Origin: Candidatus Nanoarchaeia archaeon
GTDB lineage: Archaea > Nanobdellota > Nanobdellia > Jingweiarchaeales > Jingweiarchaeaceae
DNA length: 64,000 nt
Direction: 5' to 3'
Assembly (NCBI GenBank): GCA_038874075.1
Contig: JAVZDD010000003.1
Coordinates: 25,488 to 89,487, forward strand
In this document: one piece after another, positions 1-28,559 of the stretch
How the letters are laid out: each line of letters opens with the position of its first letter
How positions within the stretch are numbered: position 1 is the stretch's first letter
Notes under the pieces: model-generated
Databases searched by the model: none
Seen by the model: the letters and a program-made list of their open reading frames with translations, nothing else
Told to the model about the DNA's origin: nothing
Made by a program: the position numbers and the translations under genes

Positions 1-3000
1 AGGTGTTGGACCGTAGTATGTTGTTTGATTCGCAAGTTGCCATTCTCCACCAGATTTCCTTATCCATAGATAAACAGTAACATTATCTCCATCAAAATTC
101 TTTACCTTTATTTCAAATGTGAATGTTGTCCCCCATTCACCAGAACCAGGAGTAATGCTCCACGAACCTTCAACAAATTCAGGCCTATGATTTATGTAAA
201 ATGCATTCTCATATGTTGAATTTTCATCTGCATAATAACTCTTACTACCATTCATCGTTAAGTTATGCCATCCCCAGTTCCAGTTCCAAGTATCACCACC
301 AAGTATTGTGGCTGTATAGTTACCATAACCTGTATCGGTTGCAAGATAAAATGCATTTTCACTTGGCACAGAGAAATAAACAGTAGCACCAGGAACTAGA
401 CCACAATTTGCATCGTCTGATAAATTACCTGAAAGAGGAATGTTATCGACACCCCTTTCAAATGCTGGATTGTTCTTTGGCCCAATTGGTTGATTTATCT
501 TAGGAGTGAATTCTGAAGTTATTGTAACATTGAAAATACTTGAGTTTGCATCTTTCCACTTCTGATCATTATACACTCCACCTTTCCACTTTTGCTTTCC
601 AACATTATAAACACATTTATTAACTCCAACTGGGAAGTATAGATAGAAGTGACCAGTAGAATTTGAATCACTACCTGGTATTCTTGGTCCCCATGAATTT
701 GGATCACTTGCATTCGTTGTTACCCAGAAACTTGTTTTTGCACCTGATGCACTTTGTCCCAAATCCAAATCAATTACTCTCAATATAAATGTCGTATTTT
801 CTGAGACCCTATTGAATGTTGTTTCATTTCCTGCGATGTATTCAATTGAAACATCATTTTTTTCTACCGTTATATTCAGTATCTTAGTATCGTTTCCCAA
901 ATCAACATCAGATTCATACACACTTTCGTTTACAAAGAACATAATTGACCAATTTCCTTGTTGTTGGTAATTGAATGTTGTAGTTCTCGTTGCAGTTCTA
1001 TTCGTACTACTGCTTCCTGAACTTGTACCGATTAGATGCCAGTCATCAGATACTGGATTGCCATTCGCATCTGTCAATTGTTTTTTATAGAAATAAACCA
1101 CGTCAGTATCCTCATCCGGATCGCTTACATTCACTGAAAGTATAAATGTCTCTCCCCACCCTCCAATCTGAGGAGTTACATTTGGGTAATATAGTTCTGG
1201 TTTTGTTTCTATCCAAAATGAATTGGATCCGTAGGTGGTATATGTAAGTGTGGTAATGTTTTCATTGTAATTTGTTTTGTTTGTTTTCATCGTTAGATTG
1301 TAAGCTTTTGGTGGCATTGAAGAGGTATTGAATGTACAATTGTAATGTCCGTCACCTTCACTTAAAACAGGTTCGCAAATGAAAAGCTCATTTGTTTTTA
1401 ATGATTTGGTTGTAAAGTTTACAGTTACTGGATCAATGATGACATTGCAGTCATCTGTAACATTTGCCCTTATTGTTACATTATCACCTCTTAAGAATTT
1501 TTCACCATCTGGTTGAATTACTGTATTAAACAAGCTCCCAATCACATTTACTGTGTAATTTTCAGTTGAATTTACTTCAACATAGCAAGCATCATTTGTT
1601 ACTCCACCTTTCCAATATTGCTTACCTACAGAATAACTACAATTCGGATCAAAATCAAGCGTAAGATAACCATTTGAATCCCCATTTATCACATAAGCAA
1701 AATTATAATTTTGTGAATCATTTGTGATCCAAATCGTTCCATTTGGATTTATCGCTGGTTGTGATCTGTTTAAGTCATAAATTCTTAATTTCAATTGTTG
1801 GCTAGCTCCATATCGATTTACGTTCGTGTTATTTCCAGCAATGTAGGTTACATTTACAATGTCTTTATGTAAAATTGGACCACTAGCGATCGTTGTGTTG
1901 ATTACATTTGTCGAATCATTTAATTCAAAGATGAAACTGTTTTCAGCCTGCAATAAGTAATCGTTGCATGTGAAGTCATTAACTGTAATCGAACAATTTC
2001 CTTTCCCATTTGTTACTGTGCTGCTTCCTTTATATATCCATTCACCCGTTGTGTTTACGTACAGCTTGCAAACAACAGTATCATTCTCAGGATCATCTAT
2101 TGTAACATTATATCTATACACATCACCAAATCCACCTTCACTTGGAGTAACAATTAAATTTGAATAATATGGATTGATATTCTCTAACCAAAAGCGATTC
2201 CAATAAATTGTGATATTATTATTATAGTAGTTCCTCGATGTTTCTATTCTAACACTATAATTTCCTTCTGGTTTATTTGTTGAATTCCAAGTACAATTGT
2301 ACCATCCATTTCCCTCGTTATTTATGTTTGTACATGAGTACTCATTACCAGTCTGATTATGTATTAATTTGATTGTAATAGATGAAACATCATTTATTAA
2401 GCCCTCATCGCTACAATCAGTTGATACATTGAATCTTATTGGAATTTGATCACTCACATTATAAACAAGTGAATCAGGTTTTTCCAAGTTATTCTTCAGC
2501 TGTCCATATAAGTAATAACTTTCCCAAGAAGTCATTTCTTTTGTTTCATAACAGTCTCCACCATTTATTGTTAATTTCCAATATTGCATTCCAGTACTAT
2601 AACTACAATTCGGATCAAAACCATAATAACTTATTCTACCATTCTCATCTGTTGTATTTGTATGATCAGAATCCCATACAGGAGTTGTGTTGTAGCTGAA
2701 ATTGAAATAACCATTTAATCCCTGAGGTACGGGTATCCCTTTATCCGTATCATTGATAAGAACAATAAATGTTCCGTAATTTATTCCCTCCCTATTTATG
2801 GTTATTCCAGAACCTTGTTCAACAATGAATGAAACATTGTCTTTTTGGAATGTAATATTGAAAATGCTTGATGTTTTAGTTAAATTATAGTTATCACTTG
2901 AATTGAATTTGAAATAAACAATCGGTCCGCTTTGTAAATCATTACATGTAAAAACAGGATAAAAGTTGAGTGTGTTCTCACTCAAACAATTCGTGCAATT

Positions 3001-6000
3001 TTTTGATTCCAAATATATCCATGGACCATTTTGGTTATATGCTTTCCATAGACTCACATTTACAACATCATCCGGATCGGAATCTTGAACTGATACATTC
3101 AATGTGAAATTGTATCCCCAACCCTCACTACTTGGATGAGCACCAGCACCGCTTAACTGTGATCTTGCTCTTAACTGGAACGCATTTATTTTCTCAACGA
3201 ATGTGCCATTATAGAAATTCTTTGAAACATTAAAGCTTACATTGTACCAACCTAATGGATCACCTGTTGTATCAAAAGTACATGTGTAATTTCCATTTCC
3301 TAAATCATTTGCATTGCAAGTATGATAGGAACTCCCATCTTGCATTACATTAAATTGTTTAATTGTTGCGCCACTTACACTTCCGCAATCATCGGAAACA
3401 TTTGCATTTACGATTAAAGATTCACCAACTGCAATTACTTCCCCATTGGGTTGGGTAATATTTGAATTTAGAACTGAGAGAATATTCACAAAATAAGCAG
3501 ATGAATTGTTTGCAAAGTAATAATCACTTTCAAATCCAATCTTCCAATATTGTAAATTGACCGCATAACTGCAACTTGGATTAAAGCTGAAGTTTAAGTA
3601 ATTTGAAACAGCACTTGTTGTACTGTCCAATATGTAATTGCTCTGATCAGTTGTAACATAGAGTTTTCCCGTAGGTCCTGATATACCCCTACCCGGCTCT
3701 ACAGCATCTATCACTTTAACAGAGAGTAATGTTACATTCGAGCCAATTCTTGAAACATTCGTGTTATTCCCAGCAATGTATTCAAAGTAAACATTTCTTT
3801 TTGTGATGTTGAAATAACCACCAAAACTTTCATTTGTTTGCCCGTATTTATCCGTAACATTGATTTTCCATTCATATTCTCCGATCTGTGATGAGCTGAA
3901 GCTCTCAGTAAATGTAACTCTTGTATTTATTGGATTTGTCACATTTTGAGAATCTTTTAATGTGAATGATGTATCAGAAATTTTCTTTACCCACAAACTC
4001 ACATTTACAACATCGTCCCTATCACTTACATTGCAATAAAAGTTTATGTTTACACCCCAAGGAACAGAAGATGGTGAAACATTTAGGCCGAATAAATTTG
4101 GAGGAACTTCGATAAACATCGCATTTGTGTATGTTGTTAAATTGCTATTGTAATTTTCAGTGTATGAGAACATCTTCACATCATACAAACCACCAGCAAG
4201 ATCTGTTGAATTCCAAGTACAATTGTAATAACCATCAGTATAATTATTTGCATAACATGCAAATGTTTCATAACCAATTCTTGAAACATTAAAGCTTACA
4301 TTACCATTACTTATTTTAATCCCACATTCATCCGTAACATTTGCTTCAAATGTTACATTTGAATATTGTTGATATACATTGTCCCCCCCAGGTTCTGTAT
4401 TTCCATTTGGTTCAATTAAGATATTATTTAACCATCCTTTTATTGTCAATGTGTAATTCTGAGTGCTATTCACATTCTTGTAACATGAGTTGTTTACTGT
4501 TCCAGCCTTCCAATATTGTTGACCCACAGAATAACTACAATTTGGTATGAAGCCATAATTTACATAACCATCAGAATTTGTAGTGTTTATACCACCATTA
4601 TCGAAATTTGATTGATCAAATGTTACCCAAAAGCTTACATTCACTCCGCTGAACACATAACTCTTATTATCAGTATCATTTATTCTAACACCAAGTAACG
4701 TGCTTTCACTTCTATTCACTTGTGAATTGTTTCCAAGTACATATTCAATGACCACATCATCCTTGTCTAATGTGAAGTCTATTCCAGCTCTGTCTGTTGT
4801 ATTATGCGCATCACTCGCATTAAACTTGAAATAAGCAGTTGGTATGTAGTCACATGTGAAACCTTTATAGTAGAATACTAATTCTTGCTCTGTCCCACAA
4901 TCATAACAAATCTGAGAACTTACGTACTGCCATGTTAAATTATCAGGAGATATCCATAAGCTTACATTTACATTTTCACCGTTTGCATCACTTACATTCA
5001 CTTTAAATGTGAAATTCTCACCCCATCCCCAATCTTGCTCCGGTAAAACGGTTTCATTTTTGAGAACAGGAGGTTGCCAAACTTGTACGATGTTAAATGC
5101 ATTATTTTTCGTGGAACTTCCATTATTGTAGAAATTTATATTACTTGCATTCATTTCAACATTATACCAACCTTGTACTGCATCAGTAGCATTCCAAGTA
5201 CAATTGTATGTTCCATTGCCTAGATCATTTATTTCATCACAGAAGTAATTTGTTCCTGGAAATGCAACACTTTTTATTGTGAAGTTCACATTTGCGCCAG
5301 CAAAGTAATGTAAGTTACATTCATCATACACGTCACCCGTTATGTTTATTGTCAAGTACTGCTCTCTCTGATATGTTTGACCATTTGGGAATGTGACGTT
5401 CGGCGTTAAGAAACCTTTTATTACCACATTGAAGGTATCTGAGTTCTTGTCTTTGTAACAAGAATCAGCAGAACTGTAAGCATACCAATTCCTATTTCCA
5501 GCTTCATAACTACAATTCGGAGCAAAATTATACTCTACATATCCACTTGAATTTGTCGTGTTCCAACCAGGAATGATATAAGTTGTACCGTTATGCACCT
5601 TAAACCATATTTTTGCTGCACCGTAGCTTGGATTGTATGCCGGAATGCCAGCATCCGTATCATTCACAAACAAGATAAATTTAGTTGGAGTACCACTTCT
5701 ATTCACTTGTGAATTGTTTCCAGCAATGTAGATAATATCAATGTCATCCTTTTCCAAAAGATGTGAACTTTCAGTTGTTTCAGCGTATGTATCTGGTTCT
5801 CCGGGCTCTGACGCATTGAACTTGTAATATTTAAGTGCAGCATCTTGGTAATCACTACAACTGTAATTTCTTGTAAAGTTTACGAGCGTATTGCTTGGAT
5901 TTTGGATATACTTACATTCAGTGATCTGATAATTCGAAGTTGCAGTCATTTTTTCTAAAAGACAAACATTCACATTTGCATAATGTGTAACAGTAACAGA

Positions 6001-8060
6001 GAAATTGAACGTCTCCCCCCATCCACCTGGATTTGGATTCACTTGTGCGGCACTTAAAACAACTGGGGTTCTGAGGAAAAATGCATTTGTTTTTAAATCA
6101 GTACCATTATTGTAATAATCATTCCAAGAATTCATTGTTACATTAAACCATCCACCACTAATCGCCTCAGATGAGTTCCAAGTACAATTATAATAACCAT
6201 TACCATCATAAGTTACATTCCCGACACCTTTACAGTAATAGACATTACTTCCAGATTGTATTTTGAATTCTATCCTGCTTTCTAAACCAGTCACAGGCTG
6301 ATTGCAATCGTCCAAAACTCTTCCTCTAAACGTAATATTTTCTCCCTTTGTGTAATTTGCTGATCCATCCGGTAGCACAATTTGATTTAAAAGATTACCA
6401 TAGATCTCAATGTAAAAGTTCTCTGTTTGATTGTCTTTATAACATGAGGCTCCGGAAACTGTTACATTCCAATATTTTTTACCAGGTGTATATGAGCAAT
6501 TTGGATTGAATTCACGGTAGTAATGTGTTTCATTCTTATACTCTTCATTTTCATTTTCCAACCAATACCCATTTGCTTTCACCCGGAAATGTACATTTGA
6601 AAGATCAATAACATTTGTATAATTGTTTGTTACTAAGTCCCATATTTGGACCGTAAGATTTACCTTATTATTTTCGCTTGAATCGCTCCTGTTCACTTGG
6701 CTATTGTTTCCACTTACATAATTAATCGAAATTGCTGATTTTGTTACATTGAAAGCAGTCTCAGATGTGGTTGCACTGAAACCAGTTACGCTACTTGCAT
6801 TGAATTTAAAGTACCAATTATCTATGTTGTCACAACTGAAGTTCTTTTGATAAGAATAATCGAAATTGTTACAATTTACACAGGAAGTTGAGTTCTCTAG
6901 GAACCAATTATAAGTTGTGTTCTTTAACCATAGCATGATTGTTACATTTTGATTGTCTTCGGATGTTACAATTAGAGAGAAATTGAATGGTTTTATTTCC
7001 CAGCTTCCTTCTGGATGGGGCTGGACTTGTGGATTAGTTAGACTAATATTACTCGCTAGGAAAAATGCATTTAAAATGTTCTTTGTTCCGTTCCAATATT
7101 TATTCCCATTTTCACCCTTACCAAATGCAATCATTGTGACATTGTACCAACCATATGGGAAACTCGAATTTGTTTCAATTTGACATGAGAAACCAGTTGT
7201 GGTTATACAAGTTCCATAAACATTTCCATTTTGCATCATTCTGAACTCTAAACCAAATTTGCTTGGATCAGTTTGTGTAACAGAACAATCATCGATCACG
7301 CTTCCAGAAAATGCAATTGTTTGTCCTCTAGTGAAGTTTTGATTGAACGATTGAATCGTTGAATTGCTTAAATCACCCATAAGCCAAAATAGAAGTGCAT
7401 TGTATGGTGATGGTTCGGTTAAATTGTTATTGTAATAACTTGAATCAATTGCTCCACCTTTCCAATAATTCTGCCCAAGATAAAAGTTATTTGCAGTTGG
7501 GCACCAATCACTTAATGTCATTGTTTGTGTCATGTAACCGCTCTCATTCACAACTGGTGATTGGGGATAATATGTCTTATAAGTTGTATTGCTTCCGAAT
7601 TGAGAAATTTGGATGAAACCTTTACCAAATTCTAGAAGTGTCGCAGGTGTTTGATTGTCACGATCATATATTTCTAATGTGAAATTGTAAGGTGTACTCC
7701 TGTTTATGTTTTCATTCCAGCTCGGAGTGATATTTATTACATCGATATCATCTTTCTCAACTTTAAAATTGTATCCACCAATTTCAGTACTACCATCAAC
7801 ATTGGTTGCATTGAATTTAAAGTACCAATTATCACTTATGTTAAGATGTGAGTAATCATAACTGAAATTGGCTTGCGTCCAGCTAGCACAATTTACACAT
7901 TCCCAACTCCCAATTAAATTGTAATCCTCTACTCCTTTTTTATGCCATGCATAAACAGTAACATTCCTACCGAATCTATCTTTGACCATCACAGAGAAAT
8001 TGAATTGTTCCCCCCATCCACCAGTTGTTAGAGATGGATTTCCATTTACGTAGAGCGTTG
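1..8060 (-). repeat. Tandem array of divergent coding modules of about 970 bp (about 320 aa) inside the giant ORF: 8 complete copies plus 1 partial copy that runs off the window
   Basis: Hand-translated motifs recur with a 950-1015 bp period. GGWGE-type motifs (TPQIGGWGETF, NPNPGGWGETF, TTGGWGEQFNF, SGEWGTTF, SEGGFGDVY) lie near 150, 1160, 2140, 3120, 4070, 5035, 6030, 7010 and 8015. PNCSY..G.QYWK motifs (DFDPNCSYSVGKQYWKGG, GFDPNCSYSTGMQYWK, FNPSCSYAVNLQYWK, FIPNCSYSVGQQYWKAG, FAPNCSYEAGNRNWY, FNPNCSYTPGKKYWN, NKCVYNVGKQKWKGG) lie near 615, 1635, 2605, 3570, 4535, 5505, 6495 and 7480. GNG.YNCTWN and KDD.I.Y.AGNNSQVNR also occur once per module. Confidence 0.85.
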
Positions 8061-11000
8061 CATTTTCCAAAAGTGGAGCATAACTATATTCTTTCACCTT
8101 CATGAACAAATGCTGGGTCTCATTAAACAAGAGTCCATATAACCAAGTGTAATAAATTTTTGTTATATTCGATGTTGTATTTGCACCATAAGTACCCGTT
8201 GCATAGGAATGTAAGTACAATGGGTGTTGCAATTGCCTGAATCTCCAACTTTGATCTTCGGTGAGGTTATATATTGTTTCGTATTCAAAGTAAATGCTTC
8301 CAAAAAAGTTTCTCTCAAAGAAAAGTGATTCTACATTATCATCAGTTTCAGTTTTTATTGAAAGTTCAGAAATTGTGAGATTTTCACCTGTCGCATTGAA
8401 TGTGAAGTTTATACCACCATTAATGATTCTCTGGTAATTTTTATTGGGTGATTGCAATGTGTGGTAGATTGTTTTATCACATGAGGCACCTGAGCAAACA
8501 TAGTTAGGATAGTCGGTATAATTTATTGTTCCCCTTGTATCTTTGATTGCGTATGGATTTAATACAATTCCACCTTCTGAACTGCAGTTTATTGTGAAAT
8601 TCAGATAAGTTGTATTCCTTACATTGAGGTTACTCAAATTCCATTCAATTGTTCTTGTGCTCGAATTCCAGCTTCCATTCCAAACTTGGGTTACATCACA
8701 AATTCCAGGAATTGGTAAATAAATCGTCCAATTGTTCGCTTGTGTGTCTCCAATGTTCCTCACGATTAAACTAGCATTATAAGTATAATTTGGTTGCAAA
8801 CTTCTCGGCTCATTCCAGGGAAAGTCAGGAAGCTGCCATAAAGCAAGATCGAATTCTATATGACTCTCATTTGTGTAATTTGCCGTTTGCAAATGATGGA
8901 ACTCATGCGGCTCATCCCAATCCACATTCTCATAGTTTAAATTCCACTTCATATTTCCTGTAGCTCCAATTGTCGTCGGAGCTTTTACTTGATAAGTAGC
9001 TACTCCATACTCATTCACATCAAAACCAGCAATTTGCCATATCACAAGATTGTTTTCCAAATCAACTGAGGAATTGAAATTCAATCCACCCAGCAAATTT
9101 GGATTTGCTGGTGTCCATCCAGGTTTTATCTCTTCTTTAAGTATCACATTTCCATTTATCGGTGCACATCCTTTGTTATGCAGTACTAGTGCACTTTCGA
9201 AAACACCATTCGGATAAACCCTTGTTGGTGTTTCCCTTATTACTTCGATCACAGAATGGTTTGCGTTACTCACATTCAATTGGTAAAGTTTAGTAATGTT
9301 GAACTCTAAAAACTCCTGCAAATAGGAAATCGAGACATTTATTGTTGCATTTTCTGCATTGTTAGGAGATGTGATGTTAAATTCAAACTTAATGTCCTCT
9401 GGTGTGAAAATGACATACTCTAAATAACCAGGCGATACATCCCAACCAGGAGGCACGCTCACACTTACATTTATTATTGTGTTTTCATCAGCATGGATCC
9501 CTTCTAATTCAACATTTAATGTTTCAGAAGTTCCGGGACACATTCTTGGATTGAGTGTTAGGTAAACTTGTTCAGGTATATTATAAAATCTCTCAAATCT
9601 GGTTGTCGAATTTCCATCGCTGAAATTCAAGGTTGTATTGACAACCAACATCTCGTGTGGCATATTCAGCGTGTTTACGAGAAATGTATAATTTATTAAG
9701 CTGTTTGGGGTCAAATTTAGATAAGTCGAATTTTCATAATAACTGACATTCCCATCCCAATTTGTTATGTTGATTGAAAGTAATGTGTCATTGTACCATT
9801 CATTGAATGGGTTTTTGATCGAAATGACCATATTAACCGTGTCATCACTTCTTAAATAAGTGACATCAGTTACTACGACTCTTTCTATCATGTAAATCGA
9901 TGCATTCACATAATCAATCATCAATGGCTCCGGACCATAATTTCGAAGTTGTAAGCCACAAGAACCATTGTTAAAAAGGCCAACATCCGGACCAAGTGGT
10001 CCAAGGGGCTTCATTGTGATATTTTCAGTCACAATCTGTGTGCTTGCAACCGTGAACCATTCTTTCTTTCCGTAGCCAATGATAACAGCATTGGCAGTAC
10101 CATTCAATGCTTCCCAGAAGATTTTTATGTCTGCTACTCTTGGCTCAATTGCACCACAATCCCATTCAAGCAATATACTTTCTCCAGGATCAACTTTTGC
10201 TTCAGCACTTTCATTATCAAAATCGTTACCAATCACCCCATCCAAAGAACAAACTTTGCTTGTAACATCTATCCCCTTTAATGTTAATCTGGCATTTGGA
10301 CACCCAAGATACTTATAACCCCAGACAATTGGATTCACATATTCTGTGTCATCATTACCTAATGAGTTATTTACATATATTGAAATACTAAAATTACCAT
10401 AAGTTGTTGCATTGATTGTCCATTTTACTTTCTTTAGTTCTCCAACCCCAATTGAACCAATATATTTAGTTCTATTATCTACCTGCCATTCTGAAGGGGC
10501 GTTCAATGTCACATAAACATCATTTGAAGTACTAACGAGGCTTGAAATCGTTGCATTTATTGTGAAGTTATTGTATTGGAATACTTCAATCGGAGAAAGC
10601 GCTTCTACGATTGTTGGTTGTGGTTCACAACCAGTTACGTCGATCGTTATTGTGAAATTCTCACTTATGTTACTATAGTAAGCACTGTCTTCACTAATCC
10701 ATGCAAACCATTTCTGGGCTCCTGGATTAAAATTACAATTTGGTGTGAATGTCACTGTTGCTATTCCATTTGTATCAGTTGTTGTTGAATTGACAAGATA
10801 ATTGTATATTCCATCATAACTCACATTGAAATAAACAGTCGTAGCGGGTGTCAAATTGTAAGTGTCAGCAATCAAATCCTTTACTCTTACTTTAAAAGTA
10901 GCTGCTTGTGTTAGATTCGCATAGCTATTGTTTCCAGAAACATATTCGATCGAAGTGTTATCTTTTTTGATTACAAAACTATCATAACCTGATGTTGATT

Positions 11001-16488: not shown

Positions 16489-16496
16489 ATTTATAA
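16489..16496 (-). promoter_or_regulatory. TATA-box-like element (TTATAAAT on the minus strand) upstream of the giant ORF
   Basis: Plus strand atttataa. It lies about 88 nt upstream of the ATG at 16404 and 9 nt downstream (in the direction of transcription) of the 32-nt palindrome. No TSS data. Confidence 0.3.
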
Positions 16497-16504
16497 GCTT
16501 TTAC

Positions 16505-16536
16505 AAGTATTTGTACAAATATTTGTACAAATACTT
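16505..16536. promoter_or_regulatory. Perfect 32-nt palindrome (two tandem TTTGTACAAA cores); operator or terminator hairpin
   Basis: aagtatttgtacaaatatttgtacaaatactt. All 16 base pairs (16505/16536 through 16520/16521) verified as complementary. It overlaps the stop codon of the 727-aa gene and sits about 100 nt upstream of the giant ORF start. Confidence 0.6.
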
Positions 16537-18718: not shown

Positions 18719-18724
18719 CTTTGT

Positions 18725-19972
18725 TCACTTGTATATTTTAACATACTTTATAACTCCATTGAAATTATCAAATGTTTGTCCTGTCCATTTGTAGTATCCT
18801 ACATCCGCCCCAATTGAGATTGGAACTTCACTATTAATACTCTTTATTCTTGAAATATCTCCTTGAGCTTCGAGCATGCCGTCAACATACAATAATATAT
18901 CATTTTGATTTAAAAGCACGAATATTTGATGGAATTTTCCATCATTATACGCTTTGTTTGTCTCAATCGATACAGAGTTATCACCATCACCAATATCAAA
19001 TCTTATCGTTCCTTCAGAATTGACTGCTAATACAAAAAACTTCCCATTCAAATAATCATTTCTGGATATAATCGTACCACTTGAATTTGGATATATTTTA
19101 ACATCAGTTTCTATTTTGAAAAAATTATCATTTAAATAGAATTTCTCTGAGTCTTTGATTATTACATAATCTTTCTCTCCGTCGAAATATAGACCTCCAT
19201 CTTTCATCTTGAATTTATCTCCCGACGAATAGTCCCAAGTGAGCACATCTAATTTTGATGGAATGTTTTGGTTAATTGGAGAAATTACCGGTTGGCTGAT
19301 ATACTGATCACTTTGATTTAGTGTTTGCATTTGAATTGGTTCATAACCCAAAAATTTATAATCTATTTTTTCAATTTTAATTGTCATATTTCCATCAAAG
19401 GTTAAAATAAGATCATAAGTACTATCAGTTAAATTTAAAATATCACATATCTCTCCACACATATTTTCAAAATAAAATGTTTCAGGTTCTTCGATCGTGA
19501 AATTGATTTCCTCCGTTACATTTATTGTTTGTGTAATTGTTTCATTTGTTGTCTCATTCACAAATGTGATGTTTTGTTCTCTTGTAACGTTCTCTGTAAC
19601 TATTGTTTGATTTAATTCAAAGTTTTTGGAAAGTATAGTATATATCTTCCCATTATTCTCCAAGTAAATACTTAGGTTACCAGAACTATTTGCGATTACA
19701 TAACCAGAAATTTTTACGGAAGTTAAAGTACAATTTGTTAGGTTGCAAGAATTTTTTAATATCCAATTGTAAATAGTAGGTTCATTTGTTTCAAAATTAA
19801 TCTCATCCACATAGTTCAATTCAACCGGGTTCCATGTTTCGTAGATAAAGAAACCCGTGATTGAACTAATTTCATTGAACCCAATGAATATCACGTAGAG
19901 AGATAGAAATAACAGAACTAAACTTATCAGATTTAGTAATGACCATTTGCTGAAAATTATTTTTTTCCTCAT
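18725..19972 (-). CDS. N-terminally anchored, sequon-rich protein with a C-terminal LamG/concanavalin-A-like lectin domain
   Basis: ORF track. TM segment is LLNLISLVLLFLSLYVIFIGF, followed by SSITGFF. The C-terminal about 170 aa (DGGLYFDGEKDYVII...GKFHQIFVLLNQNDILLYVDG...FNGVIKYVKIYK) match the Laminin_G_3 pattern (F.G.ID.V.IY ending). Confidence 0.8.
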   Translation of the reverse strand: MRKKIIFSKWSLLNLISLVLLFLSLYVIFIGFNEISSITGFFIYETWNPVELNYVDEINFETNEPTIYNWILKNSCNLTNCTLTSVKISGYVIANSSGNLSIYLENNGKIYTILSKNFELNQTIVTENVTREQNITFVNETTNETITQTINVTEEINFTIEEPETFYFENMCGEICDILNLTDSTYDLILTFDGNMTIKIEKIDYKFLGYEPIQMQTLNQSDQYISQPVISPINQNIPSKLDVLTWDYSSGDKFKMKDGGLYFDGEKDYVIIKDSEKFYLNDNFFKIETDVKIYPNSSGTIISRNDYLNGKFFVLAVNSEGTIRFDIGDGDNSVSIETNKAYNDGKFHQIFVLLNQNDILLYVDGMLEAQGDISRIKSINSEVPISIGADVGYYKWTGQTFDNFNGVIKYVKIYK

Positions 19973-20032: not shown

Positions 20033-20794
20033 TTATTCTAGTCTGAGTAAGAATCTAGCAATTTTATCAATTATGCTTCTCTCTTCCTCTTCTATGCCAC
20101 AAAGCTTTTTTGCTAGTTCCTTGAATTTTTTCGAAGAACTTGCATTCGGATTCAGTAAAACAACAGGTATCTTGAAAAATAAACTTCTTGCGACTTCATC
20201 ATCATGTGGTATTACCGACAATATTGGAATATCACACATTTCTTCGATTTCTTCAATTTTCATTCTGTATTTTTTCTTATACATGTTCACAACAAGCCCA
20301 GTCAATTTTACATTGTATTCATTCAACACATCTTTAACTCTCATCACATCAACAACACTCATGAAATTTGGATTTGCTACTAAAAGAACTTCGCTTGAGG
20401 CGAGTAATGTTCCCATCGTTTCTCTTCCGAATCCTGGTGCAGAATCAAGAAGTACGAAGTCTGCCATACCTAATACATCTTTTATCTTTTTCCTTAGGTT
20501 CACGATATCAACACCAATCATGCTGTGCGAGGAAAGAGAAGCAGGAATGATTTTCACACCACTTTTGTGTTCGTATATTGCATCATAGATTTCATATTTT
20601 CCCTTTAACACGTCATTTATCGTAACAGAATAATCATGAATTCCGAAATAGAGCGCCAAATGCGAAGTAGATATATTGCAATCAACAATTATCACTTCCT
20701 TACCCAATTGCGCAAGACATACGGCCAGATTTGCAGTTACTGTCGTCTTACCAACTCCACCCTTTCCAGACATAATTCCAATTACCCTGGTCAT
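20033..20794 (-). CDS. MinD/ParA-family P-loop ATPase (deviant Walker A)
   Basis: MTRVIGIMSGKGGVGKTTVTANLA... carries the KGGxGK[ST] deviant Walker A motif. Length is 253 aa. The start ATG overlaps the TGA of the upstream 469-aa gene (tcat at 20791-20794). Confidence 0.9.
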   Translation of the reverse strand: MTRVIGIMSGKGGVGKTTVTANLAVCLAQLGKEVIIVDCNISTSHLALYFGIHDYSVTINDVLKGKYEIYDAIYEHKSGVKIIPASLSSHSMIGVDIVNLRKKIKDVLGMADFVLLDSAPGFGRETMGTLLASSEVLLVANPNFMSVVDVMRVKDVLNEYNVKLTGLVVNMYKKKYRMKIEEIEEMCDIPILSVIPHDDEVARSLFFKIPVVLLNPNASSSKKFKELAKKLCGIEEEERSIIDKIARFLLRLE

Positions 20795-22200: not shown

Positions 22201-22223
22201 TAAAACTAATTTAAAGATTTGCG

Positions 22224-22231
22224 TTTTATAA
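22224..22231 (-). promoter_or_regulatory. TATA-like box for the minus-strand operon (469-aa gene / MinD ...)
   Basis: Plus strand ttttataa. Its centre is about 27 nt upstream of the ATG at 22200, which is compatible with a leaderless archaeal transcript. Confidence 0.4.
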
Positions 22232-22285
22232 TTCTTTCTTTTTAAATCTTTTCCTGCATCTGTTTTTAAGTAAATCCGAAAGAGA

Positions 22286-22292
22286 TTTAAAT
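22286..22292 (+). promoter_or_regulatory. TATA-like box for the plus-strand six-gene operon
   Basis: TTTAAAT is centred 26 nt upstream of the ATG at 22315 (leaderless geometry). AGATTTAAA here is the inverted copy of TTTAAATCT at 22241-22249. Confidence 0.4.
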
Positions 22293-22314
22293 GATGAAAG
22301 TTTCTTATTAGAAC

Positions 22315-22866
22315 ATGAACAAAGAATTTGATGCCATGTTAGTAGTAACAATTGCCATCATTGTTTTAGGAGTTTTTTCTGTGATCGCATACAGGGAAAA
22401 CCTTGTTTCTGGAATTGCTTCATTGACCGGTTACGCAACATGGAATCAAACAACTTCCGCGAGTGTTACAGTGAATGAGTACATCTCAGCAACTCTTTCA
22501 AACATACCAATTGATTTCGGTAGCTTAGATCCAGGTACAACAAACCAACCTGCAACGAATAATCCATTATTAGTTCAAGTCGGAGCAGAAACAAATGTTG
22601 AATATAACATCACTTTGAATGGTACCACTAATTTCGTCTCAGGTGGAAATAGTTTCTCTGTAGGAAATCTCTCTTACAACACAACAGAAATTACAACACC
22701 AACACCTTATGAATTAAATGTTGAAAAAAATGCATACACGAATGAACCATGTCCCTGCGGAACACAAGCAGATAGAAACGTCTGGCATTACATTTCTGTG
22801 CCAGCTGGACAAGTAGCTGGAGCGTATTCAGCAAACATAAAAATCACAGTGAAGAAGAGTACGTAA
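22315..22866 (+). CDS. Small N-terminally anchored beta-rich protein, subunit-like paralog 1
   Basis: ORF track. TM segment is MLVVTIAIIVLGVFSVIAY, followed by SLTGYATW. Motifs ISATLSNIPIDFGSLDPG, ETNVEYNITLNG, FSVGNLSYNTT, CPCG and the terminal strand WHYISVPAGQVAGAYSANIKITV are shared with ORF 23621 and with the C-terminus of ORF 16535. Confidence 0.85.
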   Translation: MNKEFDAMLVVTIAIIVLGVFSVIAYRENLVSGIASLTGYATWNQTTSASVTVNEYISATLSNIPIDFGSLDPGTTNQPATNNPLLVQVGAETNVEYNITLNGTTNFVSGGNSFSVGNLSYNTTEITTPTPYELNVEKNAYTNEPCPCGTQADRNVWHYISVPAGQVAGAYSANIKITVKKST

Positions 22867-22904: not shown

Positions 22905-23624
22905 GTGCAAAAAATGACAAGAATAGTTAGCTCTTTAAAAATTGTTTCCATGCTTCTACTCTTTATAATGTTTCTAAACATTTCACACGCACAAAAGTGT
23001 AGTCTTGGAATGACTCCTCTTTCTGCATCTGTGAGAGCGACCCCAGGACAAACTGCGATCATAATTTGGAATTTATATAACATTTATGGTGATAGATTAA
23101 CACATGTAAGTTTGACATACACTTCAGATGTTGATTGGCCTGTTACATTTGATCCAGCGCTTAAAAATGTAACGTATGACATTGCAGGACAAATAGTAAC
23201 TGTTACTGAGAACTTGGCATTGGAACCAAATCCACCAGTAACAGTAAAACCTGAAGTAATTCCACCAGGAACAAACTATGTAAAACATCCATTCACTGAT
23301 GAGTACATTCCTGTAAAGACTGTTAAAATATCAATAAAAATTCCTGAAAATGCTGAGGTTTGGAAGACACATGAATTTACAATATTGGCTGAGGGAAATT
23401 GCTTCACTGCACCTGGTGCAGTTATACCATCACTTTCAACTCCATTGAAAATTACACTTCAAGTGGTTCCAAGAGAATTTTATGAAAAGGCAGTTTTACA
23501 AATACCATGGTACGTCCAATATAGCTATGTGATTATTGCAATCGTGATAATCGTGCTCTTAGGAATAATATATTGGAGTTATAGAAGAGGAAAAAAATTA
23601 ACCCAAAAAGTGAGTAAAAAATGA
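22905..23624 (+). CDS. C-terminally anchored Ig-like surface protein, partner paralog 1
   Basis: ORF track. It has a signal peptide, then AQKC, and a C-terminal TM (YVIIAIVIIVLLGIIYW) followed by RRGKK. It is paralogous to ORF 24264 through shared LYN[IL]YG, THV, IP[VA]K.V...I..P.NAE[VL]WKT and VVP.E[FY]YE[KR]A. Confidence 0.85.
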   Translation: MQKMTRIVSSLKIVSMLLLFIMFLNISHAQKCSLGMTPLSASVRATPGQTAIIIWNLYNIYGDRLTHVSLTYTSDVDWPVTFDPALKNVTYDIAGQIVTVTENLALEPNPPVTVKPEVIPPGTNYVKHPFTDEYIPVKTVKISIKIPENAEVWKTHEFTILAEGNCFTAPGAVIPSLSTPLKITLQVVPREFYEKAVLQIPWYVQYSYVIIAIVIIVLLGIIYWSYRRGKKLTQKVSKK

Positions 23625-24274
23625 AATTTGAAATACCACTAGGACATATCATTGCAATTCTAATAGGATTACTTGTATTTTTTCCTGTGTACAACTACCT
23701 AAGCTTTGGAAGAATAGGAGTCGAAGTTACAGGTTTCGAAGCATTACCAAAAACACAGCAAGCACAAGCAATTCTAAGCATAAATAGATACATCAATACA
23801 GGCATCGATAAAGTACCAATTGATTTTGGTTCTGTAGATCCAGGTTACACATACAATGCAACTCCAAATTCTGGATGGCCTTCAGAATTAATATTATATT
23901 GGGAAACAAACGTTGAAACAAATGTAACATTTTGGGGCACTCAATACTTTTGCAGAAGTAATACAGCCTGTGATGTTGAGCTCGTGAATAGGTTTCAAAT
24001 TGGTAACTTAACGTTCAATACCACAAGCATTAATTTCACGCAGCCAGGGGATGCATGGATGCATTACATTTGGGGAAAGTTTGATAATACAATTCCACAG
24101 AAATCAGTTAATTATACAGAAGCGAATGCTGATTTGATATATAACACAACTTGCCCTTGCGGTGAAGAAAATTATACATTACCAAATTACTTCAGATTGT
24201 CTGTTCCCCCAGGTGTCAGAACAGGAAATTGGAACGCAACCGTCACTTGGAAAGTGATAGATATTGGAACATAA
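23621..24274 (+). CDS. Small N-terminally anchored beta-rich protein, subunit-like paralog 2
   Basis: ORF track. ATGA overlap with the upstream gene. N-terminal hydrophobic segment is HIIAILIGLLVFFPVY, followed by VTGFEAL. Motifs: VPIDFGSVDPG, ETNVETNVTFWG, FQIGNLTFNTT, CPCG and YFRLSVPPGVRTGNWNATVTWKV. Confidence 0.85.
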   Translation: MKFEIPLGHIIAILIGLLVFFPVYNYLSFGRIGVEVTGFEALPKTQQAQAILSINRYINTGIDKVPIDFGSVDPGYTYNATPNSGWPSELILYWETNVETNVTFWGTQYFCRSNTACDVELVNRFQIGNLTFNTTSINFTQPGDAWMHYIWGKFDNTIPQKSVNYTEANADLIYNTTCPCGEENYTLPNYFRLSVPPGVRTGNWNATVTWKVIDIGT

Positions 24275-24986
24275 AATAATCCAAAAACTTTCAATTTGTA
24301 GCCTTTTTTTATTTGTACTTTTCTCTATCTCTTTTGCCCAATGTGATTTTGGAACAATGCAGCCAGTGCTCGCTTATAGTGCTGCACCTGGTGCAATCAT
24401 AAATGCAAAAATCTATTTGTACAATCTTTACGGTACTTATCCAACACATGTCTTGTTCAATGTTACAACAGCACCCCCAAATTGGGTAATTAATATTAAT
24501 CCTCCAGCCAGGAATGTGATTTATGAGATTCCAGGAGGAACAACAACCATATTTGAAAATGTTGGCGTCGAGCAGATGGATAGGGTAAATGAAACACCCG
24601 CTACACCTCCCGAAGGAATTGAATATATAAGAGACCCAGTTAAGATTGGTATGTTTATACCAGCAAAAGTTGTTTATGTGAACATAGAAGTACCAAACAA
24701 CGCTGAACTTTGGAAGACGTACGATATAAAGATCTCAGCAAGTGCTTGGTGCACTGGTGGCGCTCCTGGTACAGTTGGAGCAACGCAATCAAGGGACTTC
24801 AATTTCCAAGTTAAAGTTGTACCAACGGAATATTATGAGAGAGCACAAGTGAAAGTTGGATGGATTGAATTTTTAAGACAAAACGCAATTCTCGTTGCAT
24901 TAATTGTAGCAATCATTGTCGTAATTCTCATAATCTTCGTATTAAAGAGGATGGGAAAATTAATATTGAAAGTTGAACTTAAATAG
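24264..24986 (+). CDS. C-terminally anchored Ig-like surface protein, partner paralog 2
   Basis: ORF track. 11-nt overlap with the upstream gene. It has a signal peptide, then AQC, a C-terminal TM (ILVALIVAIIVVILIIFVL) and KRMGK. Conserved blocks as in ORF 22905. Confidence 0.85.
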   Translation: MEHKIIQKLSICSLFLFVLFSISFAQCDFGTMQPVLAYSAAPGAIINAKIYLYNLYGTYPTHVLFNVTTAPPNWVININPPARNVIYEIPGGTTTIFENVGVEQMDRVNETPATPPEGIEYIRDPVKIGMFIPAKVVYVNIEVPNNAELWKTYDIKISASAWCTGGAPGTVGATQSRDFNFQVKVVPTEYYERAQVKVGWIEFLRQNAILVALIVAIIVVILIIFVLKRMGKLILKVELK

Positions 24987-26946
24987 ATTTATGGATAAAT
25001 CGAAATTGTCCATTCTTTTTATTTTCTTCGTACTATTCAGCATTGTATTTGCAAATTCTCCAACTGCTGAATCTAGTGTCACATTCAGCGTCCAAGACCT
25101 GTATCCAAACGTCTCGATTGAACCAAGCCCCATTTTAATTAAGATTAGACCGAATTCAAGTGATAGATACAGTATCGTTGCAAGGTCATTGATTGGAAAT
25201 TTACCGATAAACGTTTCATTTGAATTACTTGGCAATGTAACGAACATTTCTTTCATATATCCAACAGAGCTTTCACTTGATGTACTAGAAGCGAAATCAA
25301 TCGGATTTTATATCTCAACTGAAAACATTTCTGTTTCGAATTACACAGGTGAACTTCACTCCATAATAAATGAAACAGGTGTTGAGAACTCAACACCCAT
25401 ATTTATTGAAGTGAGTGAAAATGTTGGGAGATTTCATATACATGTGGTTGATGAGGCAAACAGATCATTGGAAGGAGCATTCGTGCAAGTGTACCAAGGT
25501 GTAAATTTCGTTGAACAGGGCTATACAGATGGTAATGGGATGTACATTACCCATTATTATGACATGGATTTGTACTATGCCTTTCTCGTGATGAGAGAAG
25601 GTTATACCTCTACGACAAGAGGTAAAAGACTAACTGAGCCTGAAATGTACTTTGAGATTGTTATGGGAGGTACTCCTCAATTGAATTTCAATCCTAGCAA
25701 TGTGACAATTTCAATGTATATAAATCAAACAAGAAATAAAACACTCACGCTTGAAAATATTGGTACTGGAAAGGAGAAGTGGATAGAAATAATTTCAGAT
25801 ACTAGTTGGTTAGTTCCGAACGTTAGAGAGATCGAGTACATAGAACCAGGTGGTTATCGTGAAATCACTGTGAACATTGGACCATTTTCACAGAGTGGAA
25901 CATACACAAGTAGACTAAGAGCATTTGGTTACAAATCAAGTGCTATTGCATATTTTACAATCGATGTACGTCTACTTCCTTTTTGTGGTGATGGTGTTTG
26001 TGGAGGAAACGAAACATGTGAAAATTGTCCAGAAGATTGTGGACCTTGTCCACCCCCACCACCTTTACCACCAGGTCCACCTGGTCCCGGTGGTGGTGCA
26101 CCCACACAACCAACCCAACCAGGTGCAGGAGTGACTCCGGGTGCGGGAGCAGGAGGAGCACCAGGTGCTGGTGCGGGGGGAATAGGAGCAGGTGGCGCTT
26201 ATCCTTGGGAACAAATTACCAGATTTCCAAGACTCGATGTCTCATATCCAAGAGAAATCACACTTACGAAGTTGGTTCCAAAATTAGTATTTATTTACAT
26301 AAAAAATGTCGGTGAAATTCCGATTACTAATATGGCCCTCTATACGAACGCAACGAATATTTCAATTGAAATTCATCCGATAATGTATTCAATTTTATTC
26401 ATAAATGAAACCAGGATTTTTTTATTAAAGCTACTTGCCAGTGAGATAACACAAGGAAACATTATCTTGAAAATTGATTCTGGTGAAATTGAAACATACA
26501 ATGTCATAAAATTTAATGTTATTTCATCAGAGGTTGATCCAGAGGCACTTTTGAGAGAAATTGATTCAATCATAAATGTTCTTAGGAAAGCAAATGAGGA
26601 AGTTGAAGAACTGGCAAAGGAGGGTTACACAGTAGCACCAGCTGTTTCGCTCATAAATGCAATTGAAAGCAAGTTATTAAAAGCAAGAGATGCAGTTCGT
26701 GCTAAGGCGTATTATGAAGCAAAGGCAAGGATCGATGATTCACTTAGGGACATCGATGACTTGTATATGATGATTTCGAAGATAAGGGAGCAAGGTCCTG
26801 CAAAGCCAGCAGGAATAAATTGGTGGCTCATTTTATTATTAATAATTTTATTGATTTTAATCTTAATTTTAATAATTAAGAGAAGGAAGAAAAAGGAGGA
26901 GGTTGAGGAAGTTAAAATACCAAAGAAAAAAGCTGAGAAAAAATGA
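24973..26946 (+). CDS. Large type-I anchored surface protein: Ig-like domains, carboxypeptidase-regulatory-like domain, CGDGxC Cys knot, Pro/Gly linker, helical stalk, TM
   Basis: ORF track. Landmarks: HIHVVDEANRSLEGAFVQVYQG...GYTDGNGMY; FCGDGVCGGNETCENCPEDCGPCPPPPPLPPGPPGPGGGAP...; helical ALLREIDSIINVLRKANEEVEELAKEG...; TM WWLILLLIILLILILILII followed by KRRKKK. The true start may be the second Met (MDKSKL, 24991). Confidence 0.85.
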   Translation: MNLNRFMDKSKLSILFIFFVLFSIVFANSPTAESSVTFSVQDLYPNVSIEPSPILIKIRPNSSDRYSIVARSLIGNLPINVSFELLGNVTNISFIYPTELSLDVLEAKSIGFYISTENISVSNYTGELHSIINETGVENSTPIFIEVSENVGRFHIHVVDEANRSLEGAFVQVYQGVNFVEQGYTDGNGMYITHYYDMDLYYAFLVMREGYTSTTRGKRLTEPEMYFEIVMGGTPQLNFNPSNVTISMYINQTRNKTLTLENIGTGKEKWIEIISDTSWLVPNVREIEYIEPGGYREITVNIGPFSQSGTYTSRLRAFGYKSSAIAYFTIDVRLLPFCGDGVCGGNETCENCPEDCGPCPPPPPLPPGPPGPGGGAPTQPTQPGAGVTPGAGAGGAPGAGAGGIGAGGAYPWEQITRFPRLDVSYPREITLTKLVPKLVFIYIKNVGEIPITNMALYTNATNISIEIHPIMYSILFINETRIFLLKLLASEITQGNIILKIDSGEIETYNVIKFNVISSEVDPEALLREIDSIINVLRKANEEVEELAKEGYTVAPAVSLINAIESKLLKARDAVRAKAYYEAKARIDDSLRDIDDLYMMISKIREQGPAKPAGINWWLILLLIILLILILILIIKRRKKKEEVEEVKIPKKKAEKK

Positions 26947-28559
26947 GGAGAATTATCTTAATATTAACTATTCTTTTGTTAATTGAAACATCACTTGCAT
27001 TAGAACCAGTAATATCTGTTTCGCCAGTACAAGTGAATAAATCAGTTCTAATACTAGGTAAAATATCAAACTTTTTTGAAGTTTTCACATTTGATGGAAA
27101 TGAATCTGCAAACATAACATTCAGCACAGAAGGTGAAATTGCTGGTTGGATAAAATTACAAGATAATTCAATTATGATCGGACCTAATAGCAGCAGGAAA
27201 GTATACTACACGATCAATGTGCCAAGGACAAATCCAGGAACGTATGGTGGGAAAATTAAGTTAGCAACGAGTAAGGGCCAAGTAGATGAGATCAATTTGA
27301 CGATAAGTACCAGTTATGCATTAGGTAAATTTGTGATTGAAGGTTTATCTGGAAATAAAATTGTTTCCAATTTTTCTGTTTTTGTTTATAAAAACAATGA
27401 TCTTATCTATCACGATTCAACGTCAAACGGATATTTAATTTCGGACTACTTCCCATATGGCGAGTACAAAGTTATTGTTAGAAGTGATTTTTTTTATGAA
27501 GCATCCAAAAATATTTTTTTGAATGCACCAGAGATAGTATTGCTTTACAATTTGACGAGAGTTCCAACAATCTCAATCAAACTAATTCCCGAACAAGTAG
27601 TGATGGATGTGTGCGAAACAGAAACTGGTTCATTTTCAATCACGATAAAGAATGATGGCGAAGAGGATTTTAATGCAAGTGTAAGATATGATGATAAACT
27701 TATAAAGCCAGAGATTGAACAAATGAAAATTTCATCCAAAAATTCTTTTAATTTAGGATTCAAGACAAAAAAATTGAGTGAAGGCAATTACACAACAACA
27801 ATAGGTATCGGCAATGAGAATTTGACGAGAAATGTTTCATTAAATTTGCGGATTATACCTCTCTCACAATGTAGCATTACACAGATTGCAGAAATAAAAG
27901 TGAGAGACAGGGTAGAAGTCGCTAAGAATTATATTTCACCAATCGTGGTCATTGTAAGAGCAAATCAAAAATTGGGAACGCTGATCATCAGTGTGAAATC
28001 CAAATTTTTCACTGAGGTCTATCCACAAAATTATTTAAATTTGAAGATTGACGAAGAAGCACCATTTTTGATTCGAATAATTCCAAATGAAACAACGAAT
28101 GATACGCTGCTAATAAGTTTAAGAAGCAATGTTGGTGAAATGAGTGATGTGGTAAGCGTTTCTGTTTATGATTCATTGAATAAGGAGATTGTTGGGAGAG
28201 AAATAAATGATACAAGGGAGCTCCTGAATAATATTAGATCGAAAATCATTCAAAAAGGCATTCTGGGAGAAAGGATTGATGAGCCAATGCTTTTGGTCGG
28301 TGAGTATTTAACAAAACTAGATATGGCTTCAACATTGTACGAAAGCGACCTAAAAAGTGCAAAAGAATACGTTGATATGGCCACAGTTGGTGCAAGACAA
28401 ATGCTGGTTGACTATGTAGCAGTAACGGAAGTTAAAAAAACAAATTATGCGATTATCATTCTCGTTCTGATCATTATTGCATTCATTGCTACCTTACTGT
28501 ACTGGAAGTTCATTCTTCCAAAAAGGAAAAAAGAAGAAGCTGAGAGAAAGGGATTTTAA
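26943..28559 (+). CDS. Large type-I anchored surface protein with the same architecture as ORF 24973 but no Pro/Gly linker
   Basis: ORF track. ATGA overlap with the upstream gene. It has a signal peptide, an Ig-like domain (WIKLQDNSIMIGPNSSRKVYYTINVPRTNPGTYGGKIKL), a CarboxypepD_reg-like segment, a helical stalk, and a TM (YAIIILVLIIIAFIATLLYW) followed by a basic tail. Confidence 0.85.
   Translation: MRRIILILTILLLIETSLALEPVISVSPVQVNKSVLILGKISNFFEVFTFDGNESANITFSTEGEIAGWIKLQDNSIMIGPNSSRKVYYTINVPRTNPGTYGGKIKLATSKGQVDEINLTISTSYALGKFVIEGLSGNKIVSNFSVFVYKNNDLIYHDSTSNGYLISDYFPYGEYKVIVRSDFFYEASKNIFLNAPEIVLLYNLTRVPTISIKLIPEQVVMDVCETETGSFSITIKNDGEEDFNASVRYDDKLIKPEIEQMKISSKNSFNLGFKTKKLSEGNYTTTIGIGNENLTRNVSLNLRIIPLSQCSITQIAEIKVRDRVEVAKNYISPIVVIVRANQKLGTLIISVKSKFFTEVYPQNYLNLKIDEEAPFLIRIIPNETTNDTLLISLRSNVGEMSDVVSVSVYDSLNKEIVGREINDTRELLNNIRSKIIQKGILGERIDEPMLLVGEYLTKLDMASTLYESDLKSAKEYVDMATVGARQMLVDYVAVTEVKKTNYAIIILVLIIIAFIATLLYWKFILPKRKKEEAERKGF

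Follow-up and report, generated by a model that had tools for sequence, protein, structure and literature searches.

A 28.6-kb locus of 11 genes occupies positions 1 to 28559 of a 64,000-nucleotide (nt) stretch of Candidatus Nanoarchaeia archaeon DNA (GCA_038874075.1, contig JAVZDD010000003.1, positions 25,488 to 89,487 of the forward strand; this whole stretch is called the window). Based on computational evidence throughout, we propose that the locus encodes one conserved surface-appendage system, the core of which is an usher-less donor-strand fiber or display module, and we give this reading about an even chance of being correct. A first-pass annotation of the sequence had interpreted the genes as one functional system and not a set of unrelated surface genes, a view that is supported here by synteny, common domains, a recurrent TG[FY] motif, and promoter geometry. 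It had further suggested a filament, an S-layer canopy, or an attachment organelle; among these, a filament or a display of pilin-like subunits is now favored.

Organization of the surface locus

The window has a GC content of approximately 35% and belongs to a DPANN archaeon (Nanobdellota). It encodes archaeal 23S and 16S rRNA genes (unlinked to each other), an archaeal RNase P RNA, and five tRNAs. The nearest named relatives of the locus proteins are found in Nanoarchaeota/Nanobdellota metagenome-assembled genomes (MAGs), including Ca. Haiyanarchaeum thermophilum (order Jingweiarchaeales) and Guaymas isolate B33_G15. All 11 open reading frames (ORFs) of the first-pass annotation are present, and its description of extracytoplasmic or membrane-tethered proteins accompanied by a single MinD was accurate: 10 of the 11 proteins are secreted or membrane anchored, and the remaining one is an archaeal MinD. 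The genes are arranged in two divergent arms around a 114-bp region. The features of the locus, in window coordinates, with immunoglobulin-like domains abbreviated as Ig, transmembrane helices as TM, and winged helix-turn-helix as wHTH, are as follows.

1-16404, minus strand: giant surface protein, >5468 amino acids (aa), runs past the window start
16210-16404, minus strand: wHTH segment of the giant ORF, 65 aa, in frame; Pfam FaeA and HTH_24
16488-16531, minus strand: probable own promoter and operator of the giant gene; one box and two palindromes
16535-18718, minus strand: g727; cleavable signal peptide, W-rich head, C-terminal pilin-like domain
18725-19972, minus strand: LamG415; N-terminal TM, ITGF, laminin-G/ConA-like domain
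20033-20794, minus strand: MinD253; archaeal MinD-type ATPase, TIGR01969
20791-22200, minus strand: g469; signal peptide, Ig domains (NEW3-like), helical region, TM, cytoplasmic tail
22201-22314: divergent control region, 114 bp, two TATA-like boxes
22315-22866, plus strand: p183; pilin-like subunit, LTGY, ASVTVN
22905/22914-23624, plus strand: p239; signal peptide, one Ig-like domain, C-terminal TM
23621-24274, plus strand: p217; second pilin-like subunit, VTGF, AILSIN
24264-24986, plus strand: p240; Ig and TM, partner of p217, paralogue of p239
24973-26946, plus strand: p657; signal peptide, Ig and CarboxypepD_reg-like domains, Pro/Gly linker, Ig, helical region, TM
26943-28559, plus strand: p538; Ig domains, helical region, TM; full-length paralogue of p657

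The gaps in the minus arm are -4, 60, 6, and 130 nt, exactly as first described. The overlaps of 4 to 14 nt that had been attributed to the plus arm are found at four of its junctions, whereas between p183 and p239 there is a gap, which measures 38 nt if p239 starts at the GTG and 47 nt if it starts at the ATG, as in the 236-aa orthologue calls. An N-terminal hydrophobic segment is found in all ten proteins other than MinD, and a C-terminal TM helix is present in addition in g469, p239, p240, p657, and p538. Three sets of paralogues are present in the locus: the pilin-like domains (p183, p217, and the C terminus of g727), the Ig-TM proteins (p239 and p240), and the Ig-helical-TM proteins (g469, p657, and p538). 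The Ig-TM proteins (22905 to 24986) contain approximately 0.8 N-glycosylation sequons per 100 aa, the same density as in the cytoplasmic MinD, compared with 1.9 to 5.4 in the other locus ectodomains.

A pilin-like domain with a donor-like N-terminal strand

Both p183 and p217 are exported by Sec and have a pilin-like fold of the Ig type. p183 is related to p217 (E = 4e-16) and to residues 590 to 727 of g727 (E = 2e-9), and the pilin hidden Markov model (HMM) recovers p217 (E = 8e-42) as well as aa 580 to 726 of g727 (nt ~16538 to 16981; E = 9e-21, HMM positions 29 to 171). The C-terminal 140 residues of g727 represent the domain that makes up p183/p217, so that a subunit-like domain is indeed common to both arms, as had been noticed from the sequence. 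From its N terminus, p183 consists of a TM helix, LTGY, the donor-like strand ASVTVN, and an Ig-like beta-sandwich; the corresponding motifs in p217 are VTGF and the donor-like variant AILSIN. An AlphaFold2 model of p183 (pLDDT of 89.8) shows the TM helix, a linker, and a confident beta-sandwich. Among the best 50 fold matches of this model in the Protein Data Bank, 43 are chaperone-usher pilins (CS20, FimA/F/G, CsuA/B, CfaB, PapA, and Caf1) and 2 are Pyrodictium cannulae.

At the sequence level, the core proteins fall outside all Pfam and NCBIfam families and gave weak DUF4402 and GH123_N matches only. Searches against solved structures with p183, p239, g727, and stalk profiles returned nothing useful, and the p183-family profile touched only GH123 N-terminal domains. 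The same profile retrieved 903 clusters at E <= 1e-3, spanning DPANN, other archaea, and contigs labeled Chloroflexota. Most of these are secreted proteins of approximately 170 aa, and the rest are large proteins with the domain at the C terminus.

The putative donor strand was compared between 100 free-standing subunits and 42 cargo fusions. In the free-standing subunits, HMM positions 34 to 39 read A[ST]V[TS][VI]N (A in 88%, V in 83%, and V/I in 97%) and are among the best-conserved positions, whereas in the fusions the same positions are 26 to 71% occupied and unconserved. From HMM position 40 onward, conservation is equal in both groups. In addition, the pilin-like domain ends within 5 residues of the C terminus in 46 of 48 fusions. 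At the sequence level, the A[ST]V[TS][VI]N pattern is that expected for an N-terminal donor strand that tip subunits would not need. g727 itself combines a cleavable signal peptide and a W-rich, variable N-terminal head with a pilin-like domain that lacks the donor-strand motif, and equivalent fusions with different heads occur in two of the homologous loci that were fetched (numbered with an L; here L003 and L006). g727 is a candidate tip adhesin.

The TG[FY] motif that had been spotted after the TM helix across both units takes the form [ILV]TG[FY]. It follows the N-terminal TM of four proteins (p183, p217, LamG415, and the giant protein) and is kept in their orthologues. Among 110 distinct neighborhood ORFs with a hydrophobic N terminus, 12 carry [ILV]TG[FY], 11 of which belong to these four protein classes; the remaining one, found among roughly 98 other such ORFs, is a probable chance match. 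The distance from TG[FY] to ASVTVN equals that from the classical signal-peptidase site to the strand in the L011 and L012 pilins, and this matching spacing in related pilins supports cleavage near TG|[FY].

Membrane-tethered partners and the minimal gene pair

p239 and p240 are paralogues (E = 3e-33). The model of p239 (pLDDT of 91) contains a single Ig-like domain, with a conserved Cys pair, between the signal peptide and the C-terminal TM. Its fold matches include the Ig domains of GH123 and sialidases, the chaperones FaeE, CsuC, and FimC, and MSP/VAP PapD-like domains. On the basis of this model, the chaperone-like resemblance is suggestive and not specific, and p239 is a candidate membrane-tethered chaperone or anchor that partners p183.

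In each of the 28 fetched loci with upstream sequence present, contigs labeled Chloroflexota included, the gene immediately before the Ig-TM gene encodes a pilin domain. This minimal pair recurs in other Nanoarchaeia and on the Chloroflexota-labeled contigs, often preceded by a cargo fusion. In L012, the gene directly upstream of the pair (6377 to 9292) encodes a 971-aa subtilisin-like protease (Peptidase_S8) with a pilin-like domain at aa 712 to 854; the pilin-like domain therefore displays enzymes as well as adhesins. The trio of pilin, cargo fusion, and Ig-TM protein is found in L009, L010, L016, and L017, which are labeled Chloroflexota or Dehalococcoidales or flanked by bacterial two-component genes. 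If the binning of these contigs is correct, this suggests spread across domains.

Such diverse cargo would also suit a non-filamentous display complex similar to the WxL/Csc systems of Firmicutes, in which the Ig-TM anchor would bind one pilin-like domain, either cargo or small adaptor, and no polymerization would take place. The cluster logic is the same, with a large protein that carries a small C-terminal beta-domain, a free-standing small paralogue, and an Ig protein with a C-terminal TM. Moreover, aa 25 to 113 of p538 match WxLIP_HBD with 26.5 bits. This score is under the cut-off of 28.9, however, and the match is shared by one of three p538 orthologues, while a WxL domain (PF13731) was not matched anywhere. 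A direct WxL link, which would rest on that single sub-cut-off match, was rejected. A display complex also leaves unexplained the extra alternating-hydrophobic N-terminal strand of the cargo-less subunits, which is lost in fusions, and the fold of p183 matches pilins that polymerize. We regard a display complex without polymerization as possible, though on the unlikely side.

Conservation of the gene block across lineages

The close relatives L013 and L014 have the same layout as the window. Beyond these, 9 of the 11 genes occur together both in Ca. Haiyanarchaeum and in the Guaymas B33_G15 lineage. In Ca. Haiyanarchaeum (L001, L002, L008, and L031), the giant gene, MinD, and g469 point leftward and p217, p240, p657, p538, p183, and p239 rightward. 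In the B33_G15 lineage (L003 and L018), all genes are codirectional in the order fusion, p183, p239, p217, p240, p657, p538, g469, MinD, and giant. A Woesearchaeota contig (L006) encodes a >1849-aa protein ending in a pilin-like domain, followed by p183, p239, p217, p240, p657, and p538, and DRN63 (L015) shows the same block pattern, in both cases within the reach of the contig. In several Nanobdellota lineages the block thus stays together although it is inverted or permuted, and its flanking genes are unrelated and differ each time. In the unrelated archaeon BMS3Abin16 (L007), a fusion, a pilin, an Ig-TM protein, a 581-aa Ig/TM protein, and MinD are encoded in a row.

These arrangements bear on the alternative that the locus merely gathers unrelated, fast-evolving surface genes through local genome organization. 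In its favor, several members are poorly conserved (p538 is 25 to 28% identical to its orthologues), and g727 and LamG415 are variable. Nevertheless, at least four divergent lineages carry the same nine families as a group, despite changes in gene order and in the neighboring genes, junctions are translationally coupled, and paralogous domains are common to both arms. Scattered homologues in related genomes, which the first-pass annotation had named as the result that would speak against a single system, were not what we found, as the genes stay together in divergent lineages. A chance cluster of unrelated genes is disfavored and appears very improbable.

Stalk paralogues and a MinD-type ATPase

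Profile comparisons with hhalign bear out the Ig, helical stalk, and TM architecture previously ascribed to the 469-, 657-, and 538-aa proteins. p657 and p538 are homologous over their full length (99.8%, E = 1e-28), and g469 has its last Ig domain and helical region in common with p657 (97.5%) and p538 (95.4%). The helical region of these paralogues measures approximately 85 aa and has the look of a hairpin or bundle, not of a long coiled coil. In g469, the TM helix (aa 340 to 358) is followed by a 111-aa cytoplasmic tail that is strongly conserved and contains invariant residues.

MinD253 scores 238 bits against TIGR01969 (cut-off of 201.75) and has the deviant Walker A sequence GKGGVGKTT, matching the pattern KGGxGK[ST]. 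Its ORF overlaps that of g469 by 4 nt, and the two are translationally coupled in three lineages. Their adjacency is kept in L001, L003, L013, and L031, and an analogous pair is present in L007. The conserved 111-aa tail of g469, together with its translational coupling to MinD, supports a MinD-g469 platform, in which g469 is the candidate MinD-binding subunit.

The same three paralogues could instead be SlaB-like stalks of an S-layer or pseudo-periplasm scaffold, standing under a canopy of the giant and other secreted proteins, with the pilin-like proteins as accessory lattice parts. Their common Ig-helical-TM architecture, the heavy glycosylation of the ectodomains suggested by sequon counts, and the conservation of the giant gene beside the stalks are consistent with this arrangement. 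On the other hand, the helical region is only ~85 aa long and not an extended coiled coil, and sequence searches of solved structures with the stalk proteins gave no relatives, although no search was aimed at S-layer proteins. Furthermore, the most conserved and widespread element is the pilin/Ig-TM pair, which lacks stalks in many genomes, and the Nanobdellota S-layer candidates in the literature are other genes (PMC11420986), set apart here by description. An S-layer scaffold is therefore quite improbable as an account of the locus.

The giant surface protein and LamG415

The giant protein starts with a 65-aa wHTH that is predicted to be cytoplasmic (FaeA, 22.8 bits against a cut-off of 20.7; HTH_24, 21.7 bits), followed by a TM helix at aa 85 to 103, ITGF, and Ig-like domains. 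This order of wHTH and TM is a ToxR-like topology by analogy, and the giant orthologues of L001 and L003 lack the wHTH. A Shine-Dalgarno-like AAGGT precedes M1 of the giant ORF, and nothing comparable is found before M66. From approximately aa 1400, the protein is built of a super-repeat of ~328 aa. It contains 293 N-glycosylation sequons and matches the Pfam families Big_1, Big_7, NPCBM_assoc, and Filamin. Its orthologues adjoin MinD in L001, L003, and L031, and one homologue, P0185, reaches 68 aa past the point where the window cuts the giant ORF.

Most giant homologues (P0185 to P0222) are "partial" fragments on contigs of 3 to 5 kb that are binned to many phyla; the repeats of the giant gene probably break assemblies and cause mis-binning. 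Part of the giant protein was matched as well by proteins of ~1100 aa with an MG2 domain (P0231 to P0235). Outside the locus, another large surface protein (1097 aa), with weak MG2 and Big_13 matches, is encoded at 40397 to 43690 on the minus strand.

LamG415 combines a glycosylation-rich spacer with a C-terminal Laminin_G_3 match (1.2e-11). It was found in the window lineage only, and its ITGF is kept in L014. Its residues 144 to 172 include TQTINVTEEINFTIEEPETFYF, a sequence similar to that of the N-terminal strand region in the pilins (ASVTVNEYISATL..IDFG), although this similarity is weak (hhalign, 0.9%; hmmsearch i-E = 0.006). LamG415 and g727 are lineage-variable accessories.

Control regions

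The first pass had described TATA-like boxes with a leaderless geometry in the 114-bp divergent region. We located these at 22286 to 22292 for the plus-strand gene and 22225 to 22232 for the minus-strand gene, starting 29 to 32 nt from each ATG. Both boxes are kept in the close relatives L013 and L014, while the center of the spacer is variable and contains an 11-nt indel. At least eight other window genes have the same TATA-box spacing, so that leaderless transcripts are apparently usual for this genome.

A further box, TTATAAATA, lies at 16488 to 16496, approximately 90 nt before the start of the giant gene. Just upstream of it, the perfect 10-bp palindrome TTTGTACAAA occurs twice, at 16510 to 16519 and 16522 to 16531, with 2 bp in between; perfect copies are found nowhere else in the window. 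Judging from its sequence, the palindrome pair is likely an operator for a dimeric regulator. A scan for bacterial promoters and terminators gave no enrichment and is irrelevant for an archaeon.

A model for the appendage

Taking these elements together, we suggest the following mechanism with moderate confidence. The subunits would be exported and cleaved near [ILV]TG|[FY], after which each would donate its A[ST]V[TS][VI]N strand to the groove of the subunit before it, in the manner of Fim, Pap, and Csu pili. A cargo fusion such as g727, acting as strand acceptor only, would be located at the distal tip as an adhesin. At the proximal end, the membrane-tethered PapD-like partner would cap or chaperone the newest subunit and in this way hold the fiber on the membrane. 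g469, p657, and p538 would form a membrane platform, positioned or organized by MinD binding to the conserved cytoplasmic tail of g469, a role that TadZ/CpaE, FlhG, and BcsQ play in other surface machines. With the export signal of the subunits, the giant protein and LamG415 would probably act as adhesins of the same apparatus, plausibly in host contact.

Several results weigh against this model. The fold matches of p183 are moderate (E = 4e-4 to 2e-2; TM-score of 0.4 to 0.55), and DSSP assigns no strand to the putative donor segment in the monomer model. The subunits could also retain their N-terminal TM, uncleaved, as an anchor. For p239, the best fold matches are GH123 N-terminal domains and not chaperones, and the protein has one Ig domain instead of two and no invariant basic pair like R8/K112 of PapD. 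Pfam/NCBIfam scans of the locus proteins revealed no usher, dedicated peptidase, or sortase. In addition, the minimal pair often occurs without stalk proteins, MinD, or the giant protein (L011 and L012), and the extended set could be a separate machine that is merely linked to the pair. The sequence upstream of the giant gene suggests that this gene has a promoter and operator of its own. The giant protein is cut before its C terminus by the window start, and every orthologue, including those in L001, L002, L003, and L031, ends at a contig edge.

A more elaborate version of the model, which we consider unlikely when taken as a whole, would make the locus a host-attachment apparatus of Nanobdellota. 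It would combine an usher-less donor-strand fiber, single-domain PapD-like chaperones or anchors, a MinD-positioned Ig-helical-TM platform, and the giant adhesin at the tip or flank. The wHTH of the giant protein could couple host contact to transcription from the palindromic operator in a ToxR-like manner.

Relation to known surface systems

In the way it works, the cluster comes closest to chaperone-usher pili (Fim, Pap, Csu, CFA/I, and Caf1) but lies outside their family, as it has no usher, no two-domain chaperone, and no family-level sequence match. The similarities comprise the subunit fold, the presence of several paralogous subunits, and the position of the pilin domain at the extreme C terminus. 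They extend to the sequence signature of free-standing subunits with an alternating-hydrophobic N-terminal strand and a two-domain tip protein without it, and, at the fold level, to a partner with a PapD/MSP-like Ig domain. In contrast to these pili, the host here is a monoderm archaeon, the partner is a single Ig domain with a C-terminal TM anchor, and stalks, MinD, and the giant protein are added. Pfam/NCBIfam scans of the locus proteins gave no match to usher (PF00577), PapD-like (PF00345 and PF02753), or Fimbrial families.

With the archaeal donor-strand filaments (Tat-fimbriae [tafi], Mth60 fimbriae, AbpA/TasA-like bundling pili, threads, and cannulae), the cluster has in common small beta-rich subunits exported by Sec or Tat and, as proposed, strand donation. 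None of these filaments has been reported with MinD, Ig-helical-TM paralogues, or a giant protein. The tafi (TafA-G) include a LamG-bearing tip protein (TafC), a TM anchor (TafF), and a membrane-bound wHTH regulator, TafB (PMC11821415). The LamG protein, the TM-anchored Ig proteins, and the wHTH beside a TM in our locus resemble these in function only, and Pfam scans detected no DUF1102 subunits, TafD-like peptidase, or TafG/DUF5305 in the locus. The Mth60 operon encodes a predicted chaperone, Mth59 (PMC10370314); Mth60 fimbriae, compared by description only, follow a logic in common with the cluster. Peptidase_M73 (PF12389) did not match p183, p217, or 62 family members, and TasA/AbpA are outside the best 50 fold matches of p183, among which the Pyrodictium cannulae do appear.

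The WxL/Csc clusters of Firmicutes likewise encode a large and a small protein with a common C-terminal beta-domain and an Ig-type protein with a C-terminal TM; here, however, no WxL domain (PF13731, E <= 0.1) or LPXTG protein is present. The SlaB-type S-layer stalk, a beta-sandwich with a long trimeric coiled coil and a C-terminal TM below the SlaA canopy, has an architecture similar to that of the stalk paralogues, in which the helical part is short.

TadZ/CpaE, FlhG, BcsQ, and Haloferax MinD4 are MinD/ParA-family ATPases that position surface machines. As in those systems, a deviant-Walker-A ATPase is encoded in, and conserved with, a surface-structure locus. Unlike in those systems, the partner would be the tail of a bitopic Ig protein, g469, and the locus lacks a secretion ATPase or platform protein like those of type IV pili. 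Among giant DPANN surface proteins are the SPEARE proteins of Nanohaloarchaeota, which resemble the giant protein in being >5,000-aa surface proteins of a host-dependent DPANN archaeon. The giant protein differs from them in having Ig-like repeats only, with no protease or restriction-endonuclease domains detected, and in its TG[FY] export signal, which it has in common with the pilin-like subunits.

Cryo-electron tomography of Nanobdellota has revealed attachment organelles and filaments to which no genes were assigned (PMC11420986). No description of the cluster was found in the literature on DPANN donor strands and on giant surface proteins of Nanobdellota, nor is it mentioned in papers on Nanobdellota attachment organelles and Jingweiarchaeales. 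The cluster thereby provides a defined, conserved candidate gene set for DPANN host attachment, and its two-gene module of pilin and Ig-TM partner is simple enough to express and test. If true, the proposed mechanism extends donor-strand assembly to a new protein family of approximately 900 clusters without a Pfam model and suggests a route to chaperone-usher-like fibers on a single membrane without an usher.

Other features of the window

Downstream of the locus, the convergent secG gene and TrmB-family regulator reported earlier were both recovered.

28556-28729, minus strand: Sec61beta/SecG, adjoins the locus
29005-29865, plus strand: TrmB-family gene, downstream of the locus

TrmB was considered as regulator of the system and rejected, since its adjacency is limited to close relatives and nothing ties it to the system. 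The 3' end of its gene is overlapped by 29 nt by the RNase P RNA (29837 to 30123, minus strand). The unlinked 23S and 16S rRNA genes, located between 30612 and 39218, are approximately 4 kb apart and are separated by a class-I aminoacyl-tRNA synthetase gene (33830 to 36172), a tRNA-Ala, and an ORF for a 284-aa membrane-anchored protein. Finally, the length of tRNA-Leu(AAG) at 52531 to 52629 on the minus strand (99 nt) suggests an intron.

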